A DNA stretch of 64,000 bases from an uncultured Nitrospiraceae bacterium (GCA_963730935.1 CAVSTP010000003.1:736001-800000), one strand, 5' to 3'. Positions 44,600 to 54,262 are shown, counted from the first letter of the stretch. The notes: generated from the letters alone by a model not told the origin. Translations and numbers: made by a program.

Positions 44600-45751
44600 T
44601 CAGGCGTCTGAGCGGCTGGAGGGATTGGTCGCAATGGCCATCGCGGGCAACGACGCCTTGCATTCCTGCACGACCTGGGTGAACAAGACGGTGAGCGCGG
44701 GGTCGAAATAGGTCCCCGCCCGTTCGGTAAGAAACCTGCTGGCGTCGTCGATCGAGAGCGCGGTGCGGTCCGGGAGTTCGGCGGTGAGGTGGTCGAACGC
44801 TTGGGCCAGGCTGACGATTCTCGCCAGGATCGGAATGCCTTCCCCTTTCAGCCCGTGCGGATACCCTGAGCCGTCCCACCTTTCGTGGTGATAGGCAATG
44901 ATCTGCCCGGCGGCTGCGGGCAGGCCGAGGGGGCCCACCATCTTTGCACCGATTTCCGGGTGCGCACGCAGCTCGTTCTCGCGGTCTCTCGCCACGATTT
45001 CATCGTCGGCAAAGCGGTACGGCTCTTTGCCGATCTTGCCGATGTCATGGAGAAACGCGCCAAGCGCCAGTGATTTCTGCTCGTCCACGGTGAGATTGGT
45101 CCGGTTGGCAAGCAAGGTGGCGTAAAAACTCACGCGGCTGCAATGGTTTAAGAGCTGACGGTCTTTGGCTTCAAGGAGATCGGAGAGCATGGGCAGCAGA
45201 TCCGCAGTATCGTCTCCCCATGGCAGGGTCGGGCTGCCTGATCGACCGATGGCCTCGTACCCGGCCCGTAGCTCCTGCCAGGCCTGTGCACATTGGGCTT
45301 CAGACCCCCACAGAGCATTGGACGCCTGAAGATAGCGGCGAAGATAGTCGAGCCGCTGTTTCTTTTCCAGCGTCTGATTGACCAGGGTAATGAGTTCCGT
45401 GACGTTGAAGGGTTTGAGCAGATACCCTGCGGCCCCATGCCTGATACCTTCCATCGCAGATCTGAGACTGCCGTATCCGGTAATGATGATGACTTCGATA
45501 TCGGCATGATCTTGTTTGATTTCCTGCAGTAGATCGAGGCCTTGCCGATCGGGAAGCTTCTGGTCCAGCGTAATAAGGTCGATCTGCTGCTGATTCAGCA
45601 CATCGATGGCGGCTTGGGCCGATTCGGCGGATTGAATGTTGAAGAAAGGACGGAGGATGACTTTCAACGCATCGCGTGGTCCTGCCTCATCATCGATGAC
45701 CAAGACGGTGGGCTTCTGCGTGGCCCTGTGCGGCTCGAAGGACGTTGCCAT
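44600..45751 (-). CDS. Response regulator with HD-GYP domain (RpfG-like)
   Basis: REC (DD, D, T, KP); HDIGK; HHERWDGSGYP. Confidence 0.9.
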   Translation of the reverse strand: MATSFEPHRATQKPTVLVIDDEAGPRDALKVILRPFFNIQSAESAQAAIDVLNQQQIDLITLDQKLPDRQGLDLLQEIKQDHADIEVIIITGYGSLRSAMEGIRHGAAGYLLKPFNVTELITLVNQTLEKKQRLDYLRRYLQASNALWGSEAQCAQAWQELRAGYEAIGRSGSPTLPWGDDTADLLPMLSDLLEAKDRQLLNHCSRVSFYATLLANRTNLTVDEQKSLALGAFLHDIGKIGKEPYRFADDEIVARDRENELRAHPEIGAKMVGPLGLPAAAGQIIAYHHERWDGSGYPHGLKGEGIPILARIVSLAQAFDHLTAELPDRTALSIDDASRFLTERAGTYFDPALTVLFTQVVQECKASLPAMAIATNPSSRSDA

Positions 45752-45956: not shown

Positions 45957-47405
45957 TTATTCCTGCCCGACAGGTTCAGGTTCAGGAGGGGTTGTGTCAT
46001 TGTCCGGACGGCCGATACCCAGTGTATCCATCCGGTACTTGAGCATGCGCCTGCTGATCCCGAGCTGGGTCGCGGCGTGGGTTTGCACATAGTTGTTCTT
46101 TTTCAATGCGTCAAGAATGATCTCCCGCTCGAATTCCATCACGGCCTTTTCGAGCGAGAGGCGGCCGGCTAGGGTGTCGTCTCGTAAAGAGGAGGACCGG
46201 GTGTCGTTGCGAAGGATGGTCGGAAGATGTTCGGGGGTGACGGCCTCTGAGCCCTTGGACCAGATGAACGCCTGTTCGATGATGTTTTCCATCTCTCGCA
46301 CGTTACCCGGCCACGGGTACCGGGTCAGGAGCTCAATCGCCTCCTTGGAGAACTCCTGGTTGGGCCGGCTCTCCTCCTCGATCCGCTTGGACAGGAAATG
46401 TTTCGCCAACAACGGAATATCTTCTCCTCGATCGCGAAGCGGGGGCAAGTACAACGCGATGACATTGATTCGGTAGTAGAGGTCCTCGCGGAACTGCCCT
46501 TTCCGGACCAGATCCTCGAGGTTCTTGTTCGTCGCGGCGACGATGCGAACGTCGACTTTGATGGCCTGTACGCCGCCGATGCGCGTGAATTCGCGTTCTT
46601 GCAGAACCCGCAGCAGCTTGGCCTGCGTCATGGGACTGAGGTCCCCGATTTCGTCGAGGAACAAGGTGCCGCTGTTGGCGAGCTCGAATTGACCCACGCG
46701 GCGAGCCGTCGCATCGGTGAACGAGCCCTTTTCGTGGCCGAACAGCTCGCTTTCGATCAACGTCTCGGGGAGGGCGGCGCAGTTCAACGCTATGAACGGG
46801 CGGTCCCGCCGTCCGCTGTTGTAATGCAGGGCCTTGGCGACCAGTTCCTTGCCGGTGCCGCTCTCACCGGTGATCAGCACCGTTGTCCTGCTATCGGCAA
46901 CCTGTTCGATCTTGCCGTAAATCTCCTGCATTGGCCGACTTTTGCCGATGAGGTTGTGGAACGCATATCGCTGAGTCACCTGCGCGCGCAGCTGTTTGAC
47001 TTCGCGCTCGAGCTCCTGAGAGTTGAGCGCGCGGTCCACGACGATCCGCAGTTCTTCGACGTCGAACGGCTTCGAGAGATAGTCTGCGGCTCCCAGCTTC
47101 ATGGCGTCGACCGCCGTTTTCACGGACTTGGTGCCGGTCAGCATGATGACGGGGGTCGGATTCTGCTCCGTCCGTAGCGCCTGGAGAACGGACAACCCGT
47201 CGGTTCCGGGAAGAATGACGTCGAGCAGCACGACATGCGGCGCTTCTTTGTGGAACAGATCGAGGCCTTCCTGCGCGTCGGCGGCCTGAATCACCTCATA
47301 CACCGGCTCGAGGACGGCCTTGAGCGACGCCCGGACACGGGCTTCGTCATCGACTAAGAGCACGCGCTTCTTCACACTCGACTCACTGCCGTTTTTTGAT
47401 GTCAT
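45957..47405 (-). CDS. Sigma54-dependent response regulator (NtrC/AtoC family)
   Basis: REC, GESGTGKE, GSFTDA (GAFTGA variant), LFLDE, WPGNVRE, Fis-type HTH. Confidence 0.95.
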   Translation of the reverse strand: MTSKNGSESSVKKRVLLVDDEARVRASLKAVLEPVYEVIQAADAQEGLDLFHKEAPHVVLLDVILPGTDGLSVLQALRTEQNPTPVIMLTGTKSVKTAVDAMKLGAADYLSKPFDVEELRIVVDRALNSQELEREVKQLRAQVTQRYAFHNLIGKSRPMQEIYGKIEQVADSRTTVLITGESGTGKELVAKALHYNSGRRDRPFIALNCAALPETLIESELFGHEKGSFTDATARRVGQFELANSGTLFLDEIGDLSPMTQAKLLRVLQEREFTRIGGVQAIKVDVRIVAATNKNLEDLVRKGQFREDLYYRINVIALYLPPLRDRGEDIPLLAKHFLSKRIEEESRPNQEFSKEAIELLTRYPWPGNVREMENIIEQAFIWSKGSEAVTPEHLPTILRNDTRSSSLRDDTLAGRLSLEKAVMEFEREIILDALKKNNYVQTHAATQLGISRRMLKYRMDTLGIGRPDNDTTPPEPEPVGQE

Positions 47406-48661
47406 GATGGGATCGCTGGGAGGTTGACGAGAAATGTCGTGCCGGCGCCGGCAACGCTTTTGACCTGTATGTCGCCATGGTGCTCTTCGATGATCTGGTG
47501 CACGATCGTCAAGCCGAGGCCGGTGCCTTCGTGTTCGCCGCTCTCGTGCTTGGTCGTGAAGAACGGATCAAAAATATGTTCGAGATTCGCCTCGGAAATC
47601 CCCTGTCCTGTGTCCTCGGTTTCTATTTGCACCCAGGGCCTGCCGCCAGGCTTGGCCAGCAACCTCGTCCGAACCCGCAGCACCCCGCCCTTTTCGCTCA
47701 TCGCATCCAAGGCGTTGAGAAACAGGTTAAGAAACACCTGCTTGATTTGCTGACGGTCCAGCATGACACGAGGGAGGTCGGGTGCCAATTCTTTTTCGAT
47801 CTTGATCCCGCGGCTGTCCGCCTTGACCTCGATGAAATATAAGCAGGAAGACACGATGTCGTTGACATCCTCCTCCGTTAGCTTCGGCTCCATGTAACGG
47901 GCGTAGTCGAGGATTTCCTCGATGAGGCGTTCGATCCGATACACGTCATCGAGCACGATGCGGCTGAATTCACGGATGAAATCGGCATCGTCTTTCCGTT
48001 CAGGGGCCAGCTGGATGAAGGTCTTGATGGAGGTCAGCGGATTGCGGATTTCGTGCGCAAATCCTCCAGCGATCGTTTCCAGCGACCTCAAGCGGTCTGT
48101 TCGCTTCATCAGGGCGTGCGAGCGGTGCAGGTCTTCCAACAGCATGCTGGTGTCGAGCGCATTGGTGGCGGTTTGAGCGAGCGCGTTGAGCAACGACACG
48201 ATAGACGTCGTGTCGTGCTCCTGGGTCCGGTTTCCTCCGAGGAGCGAAAACGCGATGAGCCGGCCGCGGCTGACATGCGGCAGGTTCCGCTCAGCTCGCA
48301 TAGCTGCGAGCGCATCAGCCAACGCCGTGCGGCACCCGTTGTGCGGCTCGGGGACCGTTTGGAGAGAAGACGACAGATGTTGCGGGATGGTGTGGGTCAG
48401 TGGGAGCGTACCGGGAAAACAGGACTCGGCGGCCAGGCCGACCAGGCCCGCACGACGAAAATGTTCATGCTCACGATCCAGGAGATACAGGGCGCCGTGA
48501 GTGGTGCCGCCCACACGGCAGAGTTCCTGAATAATGCGTTCGGACAGGGCGCCGAGATCGGTCATCGCGCCGATTTCGGTGGAGAAACGAGTCACCAAAT
48601 CCAGGAGATGTATGGGTGAAGCCGTCGACGCTGAGGCCATCTCGGTCGGTCGTACGCTCAT
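47402..48661 (-). CDS. Cytoplasmic GAF-domain histidine kinase
   Basis: AHEIRNPL H box, NLFLNA N box, DTGQG, FFTTK, GTGLGL; no TM; ATGA overlap with the regulator. Confidence 0.92.
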   Translation of the reverse strand: MSVRPTEMASASTASPIHLLDLVTRFSTEIGAMTDLGALSERIIQELCRVGGTTHGALYLLDREHEHFRRAGLVGLAAESCFPGTLPLTHTIPQHLSSSLQTVPEPHNGCRTALADALAAMRAERNLPHVSRGRLIAFSLLGGNRTQEHDTTSIVSLLNALAQTATNALDTSMLLEDLHRSHALMKRTDRLRSLETIAGGFAHEIRNPLTSIKTFIQLAPERKDDADFIREFSRIVLDDVYRIERLIEEILDYARYMEPKLTEEDVNDIVSSCLYFIEVKADSRGIKIEKELAPDLPRVMLDRQQIKQVFLNLFLNALDAMSEKGGVLRVRTRLLAKPGGRPWVQIETEDTGQGISEANLEHIFDPFFTTKHESGEHEGTGLGLTIVHQIIEEHHGDIQVKSVAGAGTTFLVNLPAIPS

Positions 48662-48770: not shown

Positions 48771-51700
48771 CTATCCAAGGGAGCCAGAGGAATTCTGTTT
48801 GCCGACAATGGCGACCAACGCCTGCCCATCGAAGATGGGAAGGATTCGGAAGGAGACGATTCCGCATTGTCTCAAGAGCGCCCCAAGACCCGCTTCATCG
48901 AATGTATGCAGGATGCCGTGACGGATCGCTTCTTGTAGCCGGGCAAAGTAGTGAAGCAGCGGTTGCGCTTGGGCACTGAACTCGTCCTGGTTGGCCTGCC
49001 GCAGATGCCGCCGATAGACAGGAGAAAGATCCGTGTTCGGATGGAAGACGGTGAGAATCAGGCGGCCATCGGGATGTAGCACGCGGTGCCATTCCTTGAG
49101 GGTGGCGAGCGGGGAAGGCACATAGGGGAGTGCAAAGTTGCAGACCAGCCGGCTCACAGAGCCGGTCTTAAACGGGAGCGCAGACCTCCGATCGGCCTGA
49201 AGCCAGGCGATGGCAAGCGGCGGCATGGCAGACAGCCGGCCGACAAAGCCCGTCGCGAGCTCGCGTTGCAGCACCAGCACCGCATGGCGGGCCTGCCCGA
49301 TCCGCTCCCGCGACCGTCCGACGCCGACCATCAGCGGCGAAGGCCGGTCAGTCCAACTGGCCTTGCCGGCGCGGTACGTGTGATTGACCAGCGCAGTGCG
49401 GGTCAAATCACTTTGGCCGACGCCCGCATCGACCAGCAAGGCACCCGGCTCGAGCGGGCTCATCAGGCCATAGAGATCATCCAGCAGTTTTCGGTACTCA
49501 TGCAGGTTGCCCAGATGCGGCAATTGCGCGAGATGGGCCGCACAGAGCGCCTCTCGGTTGATTTGCGAACCGTCATGCCGCAGGAAGTTGTATTCCTGCT
49601 CGATGCGGTGTTGTCGCGCGACATAGGGCTGTGCGGCGATTTCCTGTTGAGGTGACATGGTCTGCACCGAAATGACGGAACTGATCTGCTTGAGCAGCTG
49701 TGTGAAGGCGGCGGGTGGCGCTCCGTGGACGTCGAGATGCCGGTCAGTGACCGGAGAGGAAAGGTTCACCAGCCTCGTATGGGTGCCCAACGCGGTCATG
49801 AATGCGTGCGGCAGATCGGTAGGCGGTAAGGCGGTGGAGTCAGCGGGGCTTGTGGCAATGCAGAGCGGCGAGCGAATCAACCGGAGATCTTCCAGGGTCG
49901 ATTCGAGATCGGCACACCGGCCGGCGAGTAGATCGCTGACGAACTGATCCACGTTGACGTTCAAGCCCAGCAGGTTACAGACGCCGCGCCGCAACCCGAA
50001 CTGGTAGTCGGCGAGGAGATCATGTCCATGGACCGCCATGAGGAGGCTCGCCACATCGATGGCTGGATTCACCAACAGGAGCAAATCCAGGGGGCGCGTA
50101 TGAGCGGCGATCTTCAATGCAGCGCGGGCAGCCAGATCGCCGGCGATCACCACGATCGGCGCTTGCGGCCAGGTGTGCCGTACAAACTCCAACACTTTTT
50201 CGAGATCATGCTGCATGCTGCGCAATGTTGTCTGTTGGAGTTCGCCCTCGCTGTTCCCGAGGTGATTGGTCGGATCGTAACGAAGCACGCGGAACCGATG
50301 TTGGGCCAAGTAGTAGCTGAAGGCCATATAGTCCGAGGCCGTTTGCCCATACCCCGGGGCAATGATGATCGTGGGGCAGTTGGGATCGGATAATTGACTG
50401 AGATGGTCGTCCGTGATCGCGATGGTCTGACCACGAGCGTTACGGCATTCGCGTGGCAGGCTGATCACCGGCGCCGCCGTTGAAAACGCTTCGCCGGATC
50501 GCTGGGCGCGGAGATGTTGTCTGATGACTCGGTTCAGCTCGCGCTCGGCATAGGGGGTCAGCGGCTCAAACCGGAGTCCTGCCCGTACCGCACTGGCCTG
50601 GTCCGCCGTATGGAATGCGCTAGGCGCCGTCGGATCGGCTGCCGTCCAGACGACACGCGCTGCGAGCGTGGTATCCGGCGCTCCCGGCTCATGTGACCCT
50701 GGCTCGCTGCGATGGGCGGGGGCGAAGTGAATTTCGACGCGTTCTCTCAGCGCCTCGGACCGTTCCCGCGTCAGGATGCATGCGCCGGAGCGGCTGAGAT
50801 TCATCACCTGTGCCTGAAGGCGAGTGCCGGCTTCCTGCTGGGAAGTCGTCTCCAGGCGGGCGGGTAAGGCCGTCGATACGCGAACTGTTTCCCGGCGGTC
50901 ATATTCGGCGAGCTCGAAAGAAAGGGGCCGATCAGTCTGCGGCAGAGTGACCGGGGTGGGGAGGTGGATGTCCAGTGTGAAGGCAAGTGCTCGCTCATGA
51001 GCGGCCGCGATGAGCGAGGCAAGGACTGCCGTCTCCGTCTGATTCGGCCCAGTAAATTGCACGATAAGTTGAATGTCCGGCTGAATCGACAGCTGGATCC
51101 CTGACGCTGCGGCGGTCCGTGTATGAGCCTGACCGCCAAGCTCCAATGTGGCGACAGCAGTCGTGATCCGGATGACCGCTTCCTGGGATGAGAGAGGTGG
51201 AAAGTCACCCTGTACTCGTATCCCAGCTCCACTCACACTGACGTTCATGACCGTTCCTTCCCAGACGGACGATCCTCTGGTGATCTTTGCCGGCAACGCC
51301 GTCTGGATCCGTGCGTTGCTGCGGCGCTCGGTGCGCGCGGTAGTGGCCAGGTCCTGGTCCGCCGAAGGGCTCACGGATGACGGCGCTTCGGCGGTTCGCT
51401 CGATGGCCGCCGCGTCAATAACCTGCGGCTGAAGGGATGCAGGAGCGTGCCCCGTCGGGAGGCGGACGATCATGCGAAACGGCCCTGAGGCCGGCGCGGA
51501 CACATCGAGCGTTGCTCCGAGCGCTCCGGCCAGTCGGTAAAGGCTGTGGACATCAAGGGTGTCGGTCAACGAAGGCAGGATGCGGCCTGAGGGGTTCACG
51601 GCCTCGGTTTCAGTGATGTCCAGATGGATGTGCGTGGCGGAAGCCACGGGAAACAGTGTGGGTGTGTCAGCCGAATCGCCCGTTTTGATGGAGAGGAGAT

Positions 51701-52955
51701 GAGGCCGAGCGACCGTTGCCAGATACGCGCCTGCATAGGCCAGCAACTGTCGGAATAAGCGGGCGGTGGTCTCGCGATCGCCGCTGTAGTCGGGAAGGGC
51801 CGAGGTGAAATCTGTCGTGAAGCCGCTCGATCCGGCGGCCGTCGATGCCGATTGTAACACCTCGTCGAGAAGGCGATTGATGATGTGCGCGGTTCCCGCC
51901 GGACGGGCCAGGCGCATCAATTGCTGAACCAGTTCTGCCGAGGCCGTGGCCTGGCCACGTAACGCTTGGAGACGGTCGAGGATGCGGGATTCGAGGAGCG
52001 TATCGGCGAGTTGCTGTGATTCGTGCACGAGAGTGGAGAGCGGCTGCTCGAGCTCCTGCGAGAGTTCAGCCATCTGCCGAATGACGGTCTGGAGTTCTTC
52101 TGCTCGCTGCCGCTGCTCGATGAATGCCTGCTGAGCGGTCTGCTCTTTTCTGCGGTGAGACACGTCTCGAATGATGCCGATGGTGCCGAGGAAGCGCCGC
52201 GACGCGTCGTACAATCCACGCGCAGTGACGGAGGCGAGCATGTGGCCCATGCCCTCGGCCGTCTTTCCTTGAAGTGTCACTTCAAATTCACTGACCGCCC
52301 GGTCGCCGGCGCGCCGCTCGTTGAAGCGAAAGTGTGCAAGCCGTTGCTCGGCCTCGGAAAACAACGTGGAGTATGAACGGCCGATCAGTTCTTCCGATCG
52401 GTAGCCCAGCGATGCCGGCAGATTGCGGCTCAGCGAGAGAAACCGTCCATCGGCGTCGAGTTCGTACAGGACATCCCCCAGGGAGTCGACGACCCAGGAA
52501 TGCCGGCGCTCCGCGCGTTCCGCCGCCAACCTGCTCTCACGTCTGTCGATGGCCTCCCTCGTGCAAAACAAGAGCTCGGTCAAAAACGCCGGAGAGTGTT
52601 TGTAAAGGAACAGGTCTGCGCCCATCTGAAGCGCCTCGAGCGCCGCCCCGGAATCGGTTCGGGACGTCTGTAAGATGATTGAGGCGTAGGGCATCCGATG
52701 CTTGAGGGCAGAGATGAAAGTTGAAGGCGGATCGGGCAGGGAGCTCTCGTCGACGAGTGCCATGGCCCACGCTTGCGCCGGGGCCTGAATCATTCGGTCG
52801 GCCTCCTCGGCGGAATAGGCGACTTCGATGCGGACGTCGGCAAAGAACCCGCGCAGGCTGATAGTGACGAGTTTGATCTCTTCGGCGTTCTCGTTGACGA
52901 GAAGGATGGTTATGGGTTCGCTCTGCGGCATCGGACCGGTATCCAAAGGAAACAC
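48771..52955 (-). CDS. Multidomain protein: REC-PAS-degenerate HK-PilZ-PilZ-LuxD-like alpha/beta hydrolase-SAM methyltransferase
   Basis: Domain motifs listed in findings; GTG start at 52955 or ATG at 52931. Confidence 0.8.
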   Translation of the reverse strand: MFPLDTGPMPQSEPITILLVNENAEEIKLVTISLRGFFADVRIEVAYSAEEADRMIQAPAQAWAMALVDESSLPDPPSTFISALKHRMPYASIILQTSRTDSGAALEALQMGADLFLYKHSPAFLTELLFCTREAIDRRESRLAAERAERRHSWVVDSLGDVLYELDADGRFLSLSRNLPASLGYRSEELIGRSYSTLFSEAEQRLAHFRFNERRAGDRAVSEFEVTLQGKTAEGMGHMLASVTARGLYDASRRFLGTIGIIRDVSHRRKEQTAQQAFIEQRQRAEELQTVIRQMAELSQELEQPLSTLVHESQQLADTLLESRILDRLQALRGQATASAELVQQLMRLARPAGTAHIINRLLDEVLQSASTAAGSSGFTTDFTSALPDYSGDRETTARLFRQLLAYAGAYLATVARPHLLSIKTGDSADTPTLFPVASATHIHLDITETEAVNPSGRILPSLTDTLDVHSLYRLAGALGATLDVSAPASGPFRMIVRLPTGHAPASLQPQVIDAAAIERTAEAPSSVSPSADQDLATTARTERRSNARIQTALPAKITRGSSVWEGTVMNVSVSGAGIRVQGDFPPLSSQEAVIRITTAVATLELGGQAHTRTAAASGIQLSIQPDIQLIVQFTGPNQTETAVLASLIAAAHERALAFTLDIHLPTPVTLPQTDRPLSFELAEYDRRETVRVSTALPARLETTSQQEAGTRLQAQVMNLSRSGACILTRERSEALRERVEIHFAPAHRSEPGSHEPGAPDTTLAARVVWTAADPTAPSAFHTADQASAVRAGLRFEPLTPYAERELNRVIRQHLRAQRSGEAFSTAAPVISLPRECRNARGQTIAITDDHLSQLSDPNCPTIIIAPGYGQTASDYMAFSYYLAQHRFRVLRYDPTNHLGNSEGELQQTTLRSMQHDLEKVLEFVRHTWPQAPIVVIAGDLAARAALKIAAHTRPLDLLLLVNPAIDVASLLMAVHGHDLLADYQFGLRRGVCNLLGLNVNVDQFVSDLLAGRCADLESTLEDLRLIRSPLCIATSPADSTALPPTDLPHAFMTALGTHTRLVNLSSPVTDRHLDVHGAPPAAFTQLLKQISSVISVQTMSPQQEIAAQPYVARQHRIEQEYNFLRHDGSQINREALCAAHLAQLPHLGNLHEYRKLLDDLYGLMSPLEPGALLVDAGVGQSDLTRTALVNHTYRAGKASWTDRPSPLMVGVGRSRERIGQARHAVLVLQRELATGFVGRLSAMPPLAIAWLQADRRSALPFKTGSVSRLVCNFALPYVPSPLATLKEWHRVLHPDGRLILTVFHPNTDLSPVYRRHLRQANQDEFSAQAQPLLHYFARLQEAIRHGILHTFDEAGLGALLRQCGIVSFRILPIFDGQALVAIVGKQNSSGSLG

Positions 52956-53170: not shown

Positions 53171-54166
53171 CTACCGGACGCTCGCCGTGGCGGGGGACGG
53201 ACAGGTTCCCGGAGTCATGTACAACAGGTAATTGCCCATGCCGTGCTGCGGATCCTGTTTCTGCAGGGGATGATGATGCACCATCACCATCTCGTAGTCG
53301 TCGTCCTTGGTGACAGGAAACCCTTGGGCGTCTTTGTAGACCTGATGCGGTTGAAACTCGAGGAAGGTGCCGTCGCGCATGACGTCCGGCACAGTGCGTA
53401 GGAGCGTCTGGTGTTTCGTCTTGTTCTCGAGCGCGATGAGCAGCAGCTCGTCGTGGCCGTGCGGATAGGCGAATTTCACGCAGCCATCCATGGCGAACTT
53501 CAATGGTGCGGTGTGGACCTGAACACCCGGCTTGATTTCGATGCCTTCGTCGGTCTGGTCCGGGCCACGCTGCGCGAATTTGCTGTAACACACGACGTTG
53601 ACGCCCACCTGGTAGACGTCCATCTCCTTCACCGGTTGATCCTCGGGCGCCATGTACATAGTGAAACTGGCCATCACATGCTTGGTCGGAGGCGCCTTAT
53701 GATAGAACGCCACGACCGACATCAGGTGTTGACCCTTGGCAAGCTTCACGCCGTAGCCTTCCGGGAATTTCGCTTCCGTCATCTCCAGTCCCGCTCCACC
53801 GAAAAACAGCGGCTCGCCGGGACAGGACACGCTGGGCTTGTCGTTGTTGAGCATGAGAATATGGTGCAGATAATTCCGGGGAAGCGCCTTCCCTTCCTGA
53901 GTGAACACCGCGGATTTGAAGCCCACCATATACATGTCTTTTGGAAGTTGGAAAATGTGCTTGGGCATCGAGGCGGCCAGGTCGCCTTCATGGCCTGAGG
54001 GAAGATCGATCGGTCCGAACGTCAGGGTGACGGCATTGTCTTTGATCGTGACGACGGTAGTAATCTGATTCTTCAGTGTCGGTACCGCATGGTGAGCATG
54101 GCCGCCGTCGGCAGAGACCGTAGAAGGCCACAGCCAGAGGGCTGCGAGAAGCACGATCCAACGCAT
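53171..54166 (-). CDS. Secreted His/Met-rich protein, copper type II monooxygenase (PHM/DBH)-like
   Basis: GGAGG RBS, signal peptide, LHHIL, FYH, HGH and HGM motifs. Confidence 0.55.
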   Translation of the reverse strand: MRWIVLLAALWLWPSTVSADGGHAHHAVPTLKNQITTVVTIKDNAVTLTFGPIDLPSGHEGDLAASMPKHIFQLPKDMYMVGFKSAVFTQEGKALPRNYLHHILMLNNDKPSVSCPGEPLFFGGAGLEMTEAKFPEGYGVKLAKGQHLMSVVAFYHKAPPTKHVMASFTMYMAPEDQPVKEMDVYQVGVNVVCYSKFAQRGPDQTDEGIEIKPGVQVHTAPLKFAMDGCVKFAYPHGHDELLLIALENKTKHQTLLRTVPDVMRDGTFLEFQPHQVYKDAQGFPVTKDDDYEMVMVHHHPLQKQDPQHGMGNYLLYMTPGTCPSPATASVR

Positions 54167-54262
54167 AGTTCCTCCAAAACGACGTGAGTTCATCGAAGCT
54201 TGACATCTCGAGCGTTTAGCATGCGCCGCCTGTGCCTGAGCAGTCTGTTCAATTCTGATCAA

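Follow-up and report, generated by a model that had tools for sequence, protein, structure and literature searches.

Here, we examined a 64,000-nucleotide stretch of the genome of an uncultured Nitrospiraceae bacterium (GCA_963730935.1, CAVSTP010000003.1:736001-800000; hereafter the window, with positions counted from its first letter), and in particular a gene on its minus strand (48771..52955) that encodes a large multidomain protein ending in a LuxD-like hydrolase and a methyltransferase fold. We give about an even chance to the reading that this protein is a non-catalytic regulator, which would read cyclic di-GMP (c-di-GMP) and phosphorylation and control an adjacent kinase without a sensor, and which would have descended from an intact PilZ-thioesterase-methyltransferase synthase of a lipid signal.

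Catalytic and regulatory domains of the protein

The LuxD-like domain (49662..50474, residues 828-1098) has LuxD of Vibrio harveyi as its best sequence match in the PDB (1THT, E 3.6e-8). A profile built from 15 cores of the family (the hydrolase plus the methyltransferase) also placed LuxD well ahead of other hydrolases (E 5e-35, next 9e-13), with Ser114, Asp211 and His241 of LuxD aligned in intact relatives, and when an intact core was modelled with AlphaFold, 1THT ranked first. We take Asp211 and His241 to be the catalytic triad partners of Ser114. According to the available part of PMC6279958, Ser114 is the acylated residue of the triad.

Two sets of homologues were compared: 120 close homologues that were not selected for any residue, and 357 aligned core sequences (a redundant set from which rows with 60 or more gaps were dropped). 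The latter comprise 174 rows in which the LuxD triad positions read Ser-Asp-His, 150 with Asp at the nucleophile elbow (by definition of that group) and 33 with other states. In the window protein, D940 (50136-50138) lies opposite Ser114, and this position is Asp in all 120 close homologues. The family His is lost as well and is kept in only 7 of the 150 elbow-Asp rows. LuxD Asp211 aligns to D1039, at which an acid is kept in just 37 of these rows. No invariant His was found between residues 1025 and 1098 in the close homologues, and a replacement triad through D1047 or H1050 was ruled out, H1050 being His in 73 and Gln in 47 of them. Altogether, 8 of 26 family-fixed thioesterase positions are lost; the oxyanion-loop and lid motifs are kept (P867, G870, R892, D894, G900, G904 and G997). 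When the window core was modelled (pLDDT 85.6, pTM 0.84), D940 came to lie at the strand-helix elbow; N963 is fixed in the clade. The thioesterase is almost certainly dead, judging from these substitutions, and it may still bind an acyl ligand, a possibility that we rate somewhat below even. An initial annotation of this DNA had proposed a LuxD-like, catalytically dead hydrolase, and this was borne out: LuxD is closer by sequence than generic hydrolases, no alternative Ser/His centre is present, and orthologues are fused proteins with one split form (in genome G035). The loss of the catalytic His, the variability of the catalytic Asp among homologues and the degenerate methyltransferase motifs had not been mentioned there, nor had the origin from an intact thioesterase-methyltransferase that is paired with a 7TM kinase.

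The methyltransferase fold (48798..49628, residues 1110-1386) is probably inactive. Out of 28 methyltransferase positions, each at least 90% fixed in 98 non-redundant intact relatives, the window protein has lost 14. Among them are the motif II Asp, two residues of GCGxG, namely its Cys and its last Gly (DAGVGQS vs DAGCGNG), and positions fixed in the family as W, Y, K and E. Five positions of this domain (F, K, I, E and F) survive in only 0-2 of the 150 elbow-Asp rows. The motif II Asp is present in all 174 intact rows and is G1213 (49317-49319) in the window protein; the 29 same-genus sequences have Gly (23), Arg (3), Ala (2) or Glu (1) here. D1176, G1178 and G1180 of motif I and the strand-3 Asp (D1255) are kept, and the third motif I Gly is Ser. 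The Pfam model Methyltransf_11 is matched in its second half only (1243-1301, E 1.3e-7); in several intact relatives the match runs over the full length of the model. The class I methyltransferase proposed initially stands as to its fold and its motif I Asp and Gly; its motifs are otherwise degenerate, and the motif II acid is missing. With half of the family-fixed positions gone, the suggestion that a methyltransferase reaction is the output of the protein is not supported, and it is likely that the ancestral methyl transfer has been lost.

In spite of these losses, the two domains are the most conserved parts of the protein, with 69-70% mean identity and 20-24% invariant columns among 21 full-length orthologues. 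Ratios of nonsynonymous to synonymous substitution (dN/dS, simple Nei-Gojobori counts) in five genome pairs were 0.09-0.21 for the hydrolase, 0.04-0.24 for the methyltransferase and 0.43-0.75 for the linker. Because both dead domains remain the most conserved parts, they should still do something.

The protein-coding frame is open for 1394 codons from a GTG at 52955, which is the length reported at first. An ATG at 52931 is the likelier start and would give 1386 aa, because residue 7-9 is where most full-length orthologue matches begin, and residue 9 where the Atlas record does. The domain order, receiver (REC)-PAS-kinase remnant-PilZ-PilZ-LuxD-like hydrolase-methyltransferase, agrees with the initial annotation, and all the motifs it quoted were found where it had placed them. 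In Pfam searches the protein matched PilZ in two stretches (E 2e-16) and Acyl_transf_2/LuxD at 859-1039 (E 2.6e-13, better than Hydrolase_4 at 8.9e-9); REC and HisKA scored weakly (E 0.089 and 0.47), and HATPase_c was not found at E≤1.

The regulatory half begins with an atypical receiver (52551..52916, residues 14-135), in which D69 (52749-52751), T97 and K119 are present and the acid pair is N-E. Its Pfam score is 13 bits against a cut-off of 30, and homologues reach E 1e-15. Among the 120 close homologues, 12-13 of which are gapped here, D69 is kept in 104, K119 in 106 and E22 in 99; the first acid is N or S, E22 is found in 14 of 24 same-genus rows, and position 97 is T or S. The predicted phospho-Asp and the Thr and Lys noticed initially are retained. 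A PAS domain follows (52152..52508, residues 150-268; Pfam match 156-265, E 4e-9), and then a histidine-kinase remnant with DHp-like and CA-like parts (51456..52103, residues 285-500). The latter is poorly conserved (1-6% invariant columns), has Q300 at the His position (His in 3 of 120 homologues) and, as had been recognized, has neither the phospho-His nor an N box; shorter orthologues of 1059-1251 aa without most of it exist.

Both PilZ domains carry the motif RxxxR as well as [D/N]hSxxG, as these are defined in the available text of 10.1101/814665, in agreement with the first description. In PilZ1 (50976..51338; R545, R549 and 571-576) the second motif is variable, with S573 in 92 of 120 homologues and 20 of 29 same-genus rows. 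PilZ2 (50511..50909) is nearly invariant: R688 and R692 are found in 119 of 120 homologues, and [ND]719, S721 and G724 in all of them (second motif 719-724). This conservation makes PilZ2 the predicted main site, and it very probably binds c-di-GMP. In the genome as a whole there are 48 PilZ matches, most of them in small stand-alone ORFs, vs 7 GGDEF matches.

Intact relatives and the neighbouring kinase

When the family profile was searched against representatives clustered at 50% identity, 557 clusters were retrieved at E≤1e-30, many of them stand-alone proteins of about 560 aa. Relatives with a full triad and S-adenosylmethionine (SAM) motifs are present in Nitrospirales and in Opitutales, the latter being the one subclade placed taxonomically among the distant thioesterase-methyltransferase clusters. 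Among the intact proteins, P0256 can be aligned collinearly with the full window protein (28% identity), and there are intact forms with REC-PAS-PilZ-PilZ (locus L096); hence a regulated and presumably active enzyme, such as the initial annotation had imagined, exists in relatives. The core was detected in 192 of 301 genomes of the order at E≤1e-20; as in the genus counts given here and below, four candidates were scored in each genome. It was not found in genera g6 (0/38) and g8 (0/5), nor in 34 of 73 g14 genomes. In some genera an intact copy and a dead one occupy different loci, and the window genome has only the dead one. The genome is 99.9% complete, and no active paralogue was found in it by tblastn, by PF02273 (whose one match is the window gene) or by the family profile; the gene is single-copy. 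Close homologues bear Nitrospira as source name, and 30 of 32 other same-genus genomes have a strong match to the protein, the two misses being only 74% and 76% complete.

Several unusual forms were also noticed. P0061, a full-length homologue with 61% identity, carries a cyanobacterial species label and is probably mis-binned Nitrospira DNA. Two thioesterase-methyltransferase proteins (L033:6439-10029 and L035:6588-10133) have about 300 extra residues at the C-terminus, and that region of L033 has no Pfam match at E≤1e-4. In one genome (L052:481-4614, G294) PilZ-PilZ-thioesterase-methyltransferase lies in frame with HisKA_7TM-GAF in a single ORF of 1666 aa, which may reflect a lost stop codon or an assembly error.

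The gene following the window gene encodes a 419-aa GAF-HisKA-HATPase kinase (47402..48661, minus strand) with intact catalytic motifs, which is a truncated orthologue of a kinase with a seven-transmembrane (7TM) sensor and a GAF domain. Most of the Nitrospirales 7TM kinases examined share 52-55% identity with it in their C-terminal part, and the rest 37-49%. That it might be a separate second kinase was ruled out, given that it is 52-55% identical over its full length to most of these and nested among them. The stop codon of the kinase gene overlaps by 4 bases with the gene for a sigma54-dependent REC-AAA+-HTH activator (45957..47405, minus strand), which is followed by a gene for a REC-HD-GYP protein (44600..45751, minus strand). 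The latter is a predicted c-di-GMP phosphodiesterase, matching a NosR-family c-di-GMP phosphodiesterase model at E 4e-57 but under its cut-off, and the gene is syntenic in relatives.

At intact loci, a HisKA_7TM-GAF kinase is directly next in 24 of 25 distinct loci (after dropping five duplicate or flank-less intact rows, and with a Pfam check) and follows one inserted gene in the 25th; one further intact copy (L092) has no kinase behind it. The available sections of PMC5847659 name HisKA_7TM just as a sensor domain. The stand-alone form in Opitutales has a 7TM kinase in 67 of 74 loci and, in at least 36, a divergent operon with a FadL channel. At the Ser-to-Asp loci the picture is different. 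In all 37 that were examined (30 and 7 in two surveys) the next gene encodes a GAF kinase of 419-443 aa without the 7TM part, across lineages that are 31-58% identical in the core. Further on, as far as the DNA extends, the window's order of a sigma54 activator followed by a REC-HD-GYP protein recurs. Beside recN, in the same position on the chromosome, genomes G035 and G167 retain a 7TM kinase.

The order of events was reconstructed from a core tree of 37 selected rows rooted on four Opitutales sequences; all trees were quick ones with SH-aLRT support only. The intact state is ancestral and the long Asp clade derived (SH-aLRT 100); nested within this clade is the branch whose methyltransferase is most degenerate (the window genus and g18). 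The kinases without transmembrane segments form one clade nested among the 7TM kinases, the kinase tree mirrors the core tree, and the loss of 7TM maps to the same branch as the loss of Ser. The two losses are probably one event, as far as these trees indicate. One genome, G034 (locus L037), stands apart in the core tree; a single Asp clade was not rejected (AU test, p 0.37), and the kinase of this genome falls within the clade without transmembrane segments, so the idea of a second independent Ser-to-Asp change with 7TM loss was dropped.

Additional enzymes occur in related cassettes. Where Ser has become Gly or Asn, the adjacent gene often encodes a further PilZ-fused enzyme, which is heme-oxygenase-like, a ketoacyl-ACP synthase III (KAS III) or an aldehyde dehydrogenase. 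Such PilZ-fused enzymes behind the thioesterase-methyltransferase gene were located at L033:4804-6150, L089:7446-8723, L083:3-1082, L036:5162-6757 and L082:7417-9591, the types including heme-oxygenase-like/TenA, KAS III (FabH-like) and aldehyde dehydrogenase; the insertions suggest swapping of signal chemistry. The window genome has a second cassette (L173:8417-14165; G000:C3, about 433400-439200), in which a 572-aa NAD-binding reductase-like protein directly precedes a HisKA_7TM-GAF kinase, with a divergent FadL gene alongside. This kinase is 47% identical to the window kinase and is the sole remaining 7TM-GAF kinase of the genome. In the Opitutales loci L106:1343-11173 and L098-L171, a REC-kinase, a FadL channel and a HATPase protein are on one strand, and the thioesterase-methyltransferase, the 7TM kinase and an uncharacterised GAF protein of 450-480 aa are on the opposite one.

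On the other side of the window gene, 53171-54262 (minus strand) encodes a 363-aa protein with a predicted signal peptide, His/Met-rich motifs and no Pfam or NCBIfam match; this upstream synteny is seen in many relatives. Our guess is that it is metal-binding or copper-monooxygenase-like. Scans for promoters and terminators and a search for the sigma54 consensus gave nothing above shuffled sequences. Contigs from three RNA libraries span parts of the gene and its neighbours, which indicates neither transcription nor an operon.

Proposed mechanism and alternative explanations

We propose that the ancestral protein was a synthase whose thioesterase would have freed a fatty acid from acyl-acyl carrier protein (acyl-ACP), whose methyltransferase would have methylated it, and whose product would have been sensed by the adjacent 7TM-GAF kinase. 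The lipid context supports such a synthase: a FadL channel in the Opitutales operon, the insertions of PilZ-fused KAS III, heme-oxygenase-like and aldehyde dehydrogenase enzymes, and the cassette that combines a second enzyme, a 7TM kinase and FadL. In one Nitrospiraceae lineage, as trees and motifs show, Ser became Asp, His disappeared, the 7TM part of the kinase was lost and substrate-side residues of the methyltransferase changed; loss of the acid that binds the SAM ribose came later and patchily, and also affected the window protein. At present, c-di-GMP on PilZ2 and phosphorylation of D69 would alter the dead core's conformation, and the core would stand in for the lost sensor by providing the input to the kinase, the sigma54 activator and the HD-GYP module; the HD-GYP protein would lower c-di-GMP and so close a feedback loop. 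Whether the window protein acts on the adjacent kinase pathway at all is, in our estimate, evenly balanced. A prediction of the complex between the dead core (559 aa) and the 419-aa kinase, with alignments of 31 rows each, returned a score of 0.00, that is, no answer, and weighs neither way.

Several observations weigh against this mechanism. The window gene and the kinase gene are separated by 109 bases. The coupling in 37 of 37 loci is not replicated evidence, since the losses of Ser and 7TM are probably one event. In genus g14 the core was matched in 39 of 73 genomes, and some complete relatives have no match. In a structure search with the window hydrolase half, 1THT came first (Z 24.8) but tied with generic esterases (Z 24.4), and we infer the ancestral lipid product from the likeness to LuxD and from gene neighbours. 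The motif I Asp and Gly and the strand-3 Asp are present in 119, 119 and 117 of 120 close homologues, and Asp or Glu is found at motif II in 31 of these and in 51 of the 150 elbow-Asp rows. Moreover, the motif II acid, which binds the SAM ribose, is only partially conserved across class I methyltransferases (PMC1282579, available text). With motif I kept, the acid retained in those 51 rows and motif II so variable in the class, a changed methyltransferase activity is possible.

Such an activity is central to the model of the initial annotation, in which a dead hydrolase binds acyl groups and the methyltransferase has kept its activity, with a new substrate, its output being controlled by c-di-GMP and phosphorylation. 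Besides the residues just listed, it is favoured by the intact fold (pLDDT as given above; Atlas features, 0.96 to SAM methyltransferases), the strong purifying selection and the retention of GCG and the motif II Asp in related Asp-clade lineages (L078-L080 and L086). We nevertheless regard it as unlikely, considering the Gly at motif II, the Arg of some same-genus orthologues, which is hard to reconcile with ribose binding, the loss of half of the family-fixed positions and the Pfam match limited to the second half of the model. A different activity might instead reside in the hydrolase, with D940 as a new nucleophile. Epoxide hydrolases and haloalkane dehalogenases use an Asp nucleophile, D940 is invariant at the elbow position in the model, and N963 is fixed in the clade. 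Such enzymes need a His base, however, and the rarity of the family His and of the acid, together with the lack of any other invariant His in 1025-1098, makes this very improbable.

If no activity is left, the dead core could be a metabolite sensor or scaffold (for acyl-ACP, a fatty acid, SAM or S-adenosylhomocysteine (SAH)) that works with another partner, the kinase being a syntenic leftover that uses its own GAF domain. The kinase does retain GAF and all catalytic motifs, the hydrolase still has its oxyanion-loop and lid motifs, and the synteny is explicable by descent alone because the kinase tree mirrors the core tree. The unbroken adjacency of the pair and the mapping of both losses to one branch speak against such a partner, to which we assign a low probability. 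It could further be argued that the C-terminal half is an inert relic and that only REC, PAS and PilZ matter, as catalytic residues were lost in three domains (kinase remnant, hydrolase and methyltransferase). This is largely refuted by the conservation of that half (dN/dS≤0.24) and by the strong match in 30 of 32 other genomes of the genus, and is the least credible of the explanations. A more far-reaching version of the regulator proposed here is that the synthase turned into a receptor: the dead core would bind its old substrate (acyl-ACP or a fatty acid, perhaps SAM or SAH), gated by c-di-GMP and phosphorylation, and directly replace 7TM, so that an extracellular circuit became intracellular, while the intact relatives would constitute an undescribed fatty-acid-methyl-ester signalling family across Nitrospirota and Verrucomicrobiota. 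We put this forward as a speculation that is unlikely to be correct in full.

Among the major nitrifiers of soil, water and treatment plants are Nitrospira, and the gene is near-core in the genus. The locus is best read as a degenerate lipid-signal synthase-kinase cassette, and experiments would be better aimed at the intact relatives: they are candidates for a new lipid cell-cell signal together with its receptor, involving one enzyme, an adjacent 7TM kinase and often a FadL channel. The window copy is a natural experiment in the rewiring of a synthase-receptor pair after loss of catalysis and sensor. If the core is the new input of the kinase, a pseudo-enzyme would here have taken the place of a receptor domain, which is rare.

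Comparison with known systems

In the literature searched, which left most subscription papers outside, we found no description of a combination of LuxD with PilZ or of a fusion of a LuxD thioesterase with a methyltransferase, and the initial claim of an undescribed architecture is so far not contradicted. The main texts of two PilZ surveys (10.1101/2020.02.11.943704 and 10.1101/814665) contain no hydrolase fusion, and thioesterase is absent from one of them; their supplements could list the architecture.

LuxD of V. harveyi (1THT, PF02273, NF052253) is the closest hydrolase by sequence and the top fold match to the window domain. Unlike LuxD, the window protein lacks the Ser and His and is fused to PilZ and a methyltransferase, and it scores 48.7 bits against an NCBIfam cut-off of 420. 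No LuxC or LuxE family match was found in the genome, which extends to the whole genome the earlier remark that the window has no lux genes. The neighbouring kinase and activator match the models TIGR02916 and TIGR02915 of PrsK/PrsR (PEP-CTERM), with which they share the layout of GAF kinase and sigma54 activator. They differ from that pair in scoring under the cut-offs (100 vs 300 and 436 vs 503 bits) and in that the window kinase has no membrane part.

The system closest in logic is Phc of Ralstonia, in which the methyltransferase PhcB makes the methyl ester of a fatty acid (3-OH PAME/MAME, the 3-hydroxy-palmitic or -myristic acid methyl ester) that is sensed by PhcS-PhcR (PMC7912708, available part). 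This resembles, at the level of logic, what we infer for the intact ancestor; NCBIfam scans of three intact members listed no PhcB-named model. A synthase gene beside a membrane sensor kinase is found in the intact relatives and no longer in the window, where 7TM is gone. Unlike Phc, the family has a LuxD-like thioesterase fused in, control by PilZ, REC and PAS, a HisKA_7TM-GAF kinase and a sigma54 output, and the window copy is degenerate.

In the diffusible signal factor (DSF) system of Xanthomonas, the acyl-ACP thioesterase synthase RpfF, the membrane kinase RpfC and the REC-HD-GYP protein RpfG are encoded in one cluster, and the synthase binds the kinase (PMC7912708, available part). RpfF is of the enoyl-CoA hydratase type and has no methyltransferase, whereas here an alpha/beta hydrolase and a methyltransferase are combined with PilZ, and the window kinase has no membrane sensor. 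Finally, the canonical PilZ receptor MapZ binds the methyltransferase CheR1, whereas the window protein joins two PilZ domains in tandem, in cis, with an unrelated methyltransferase fold of the small-molecule type.

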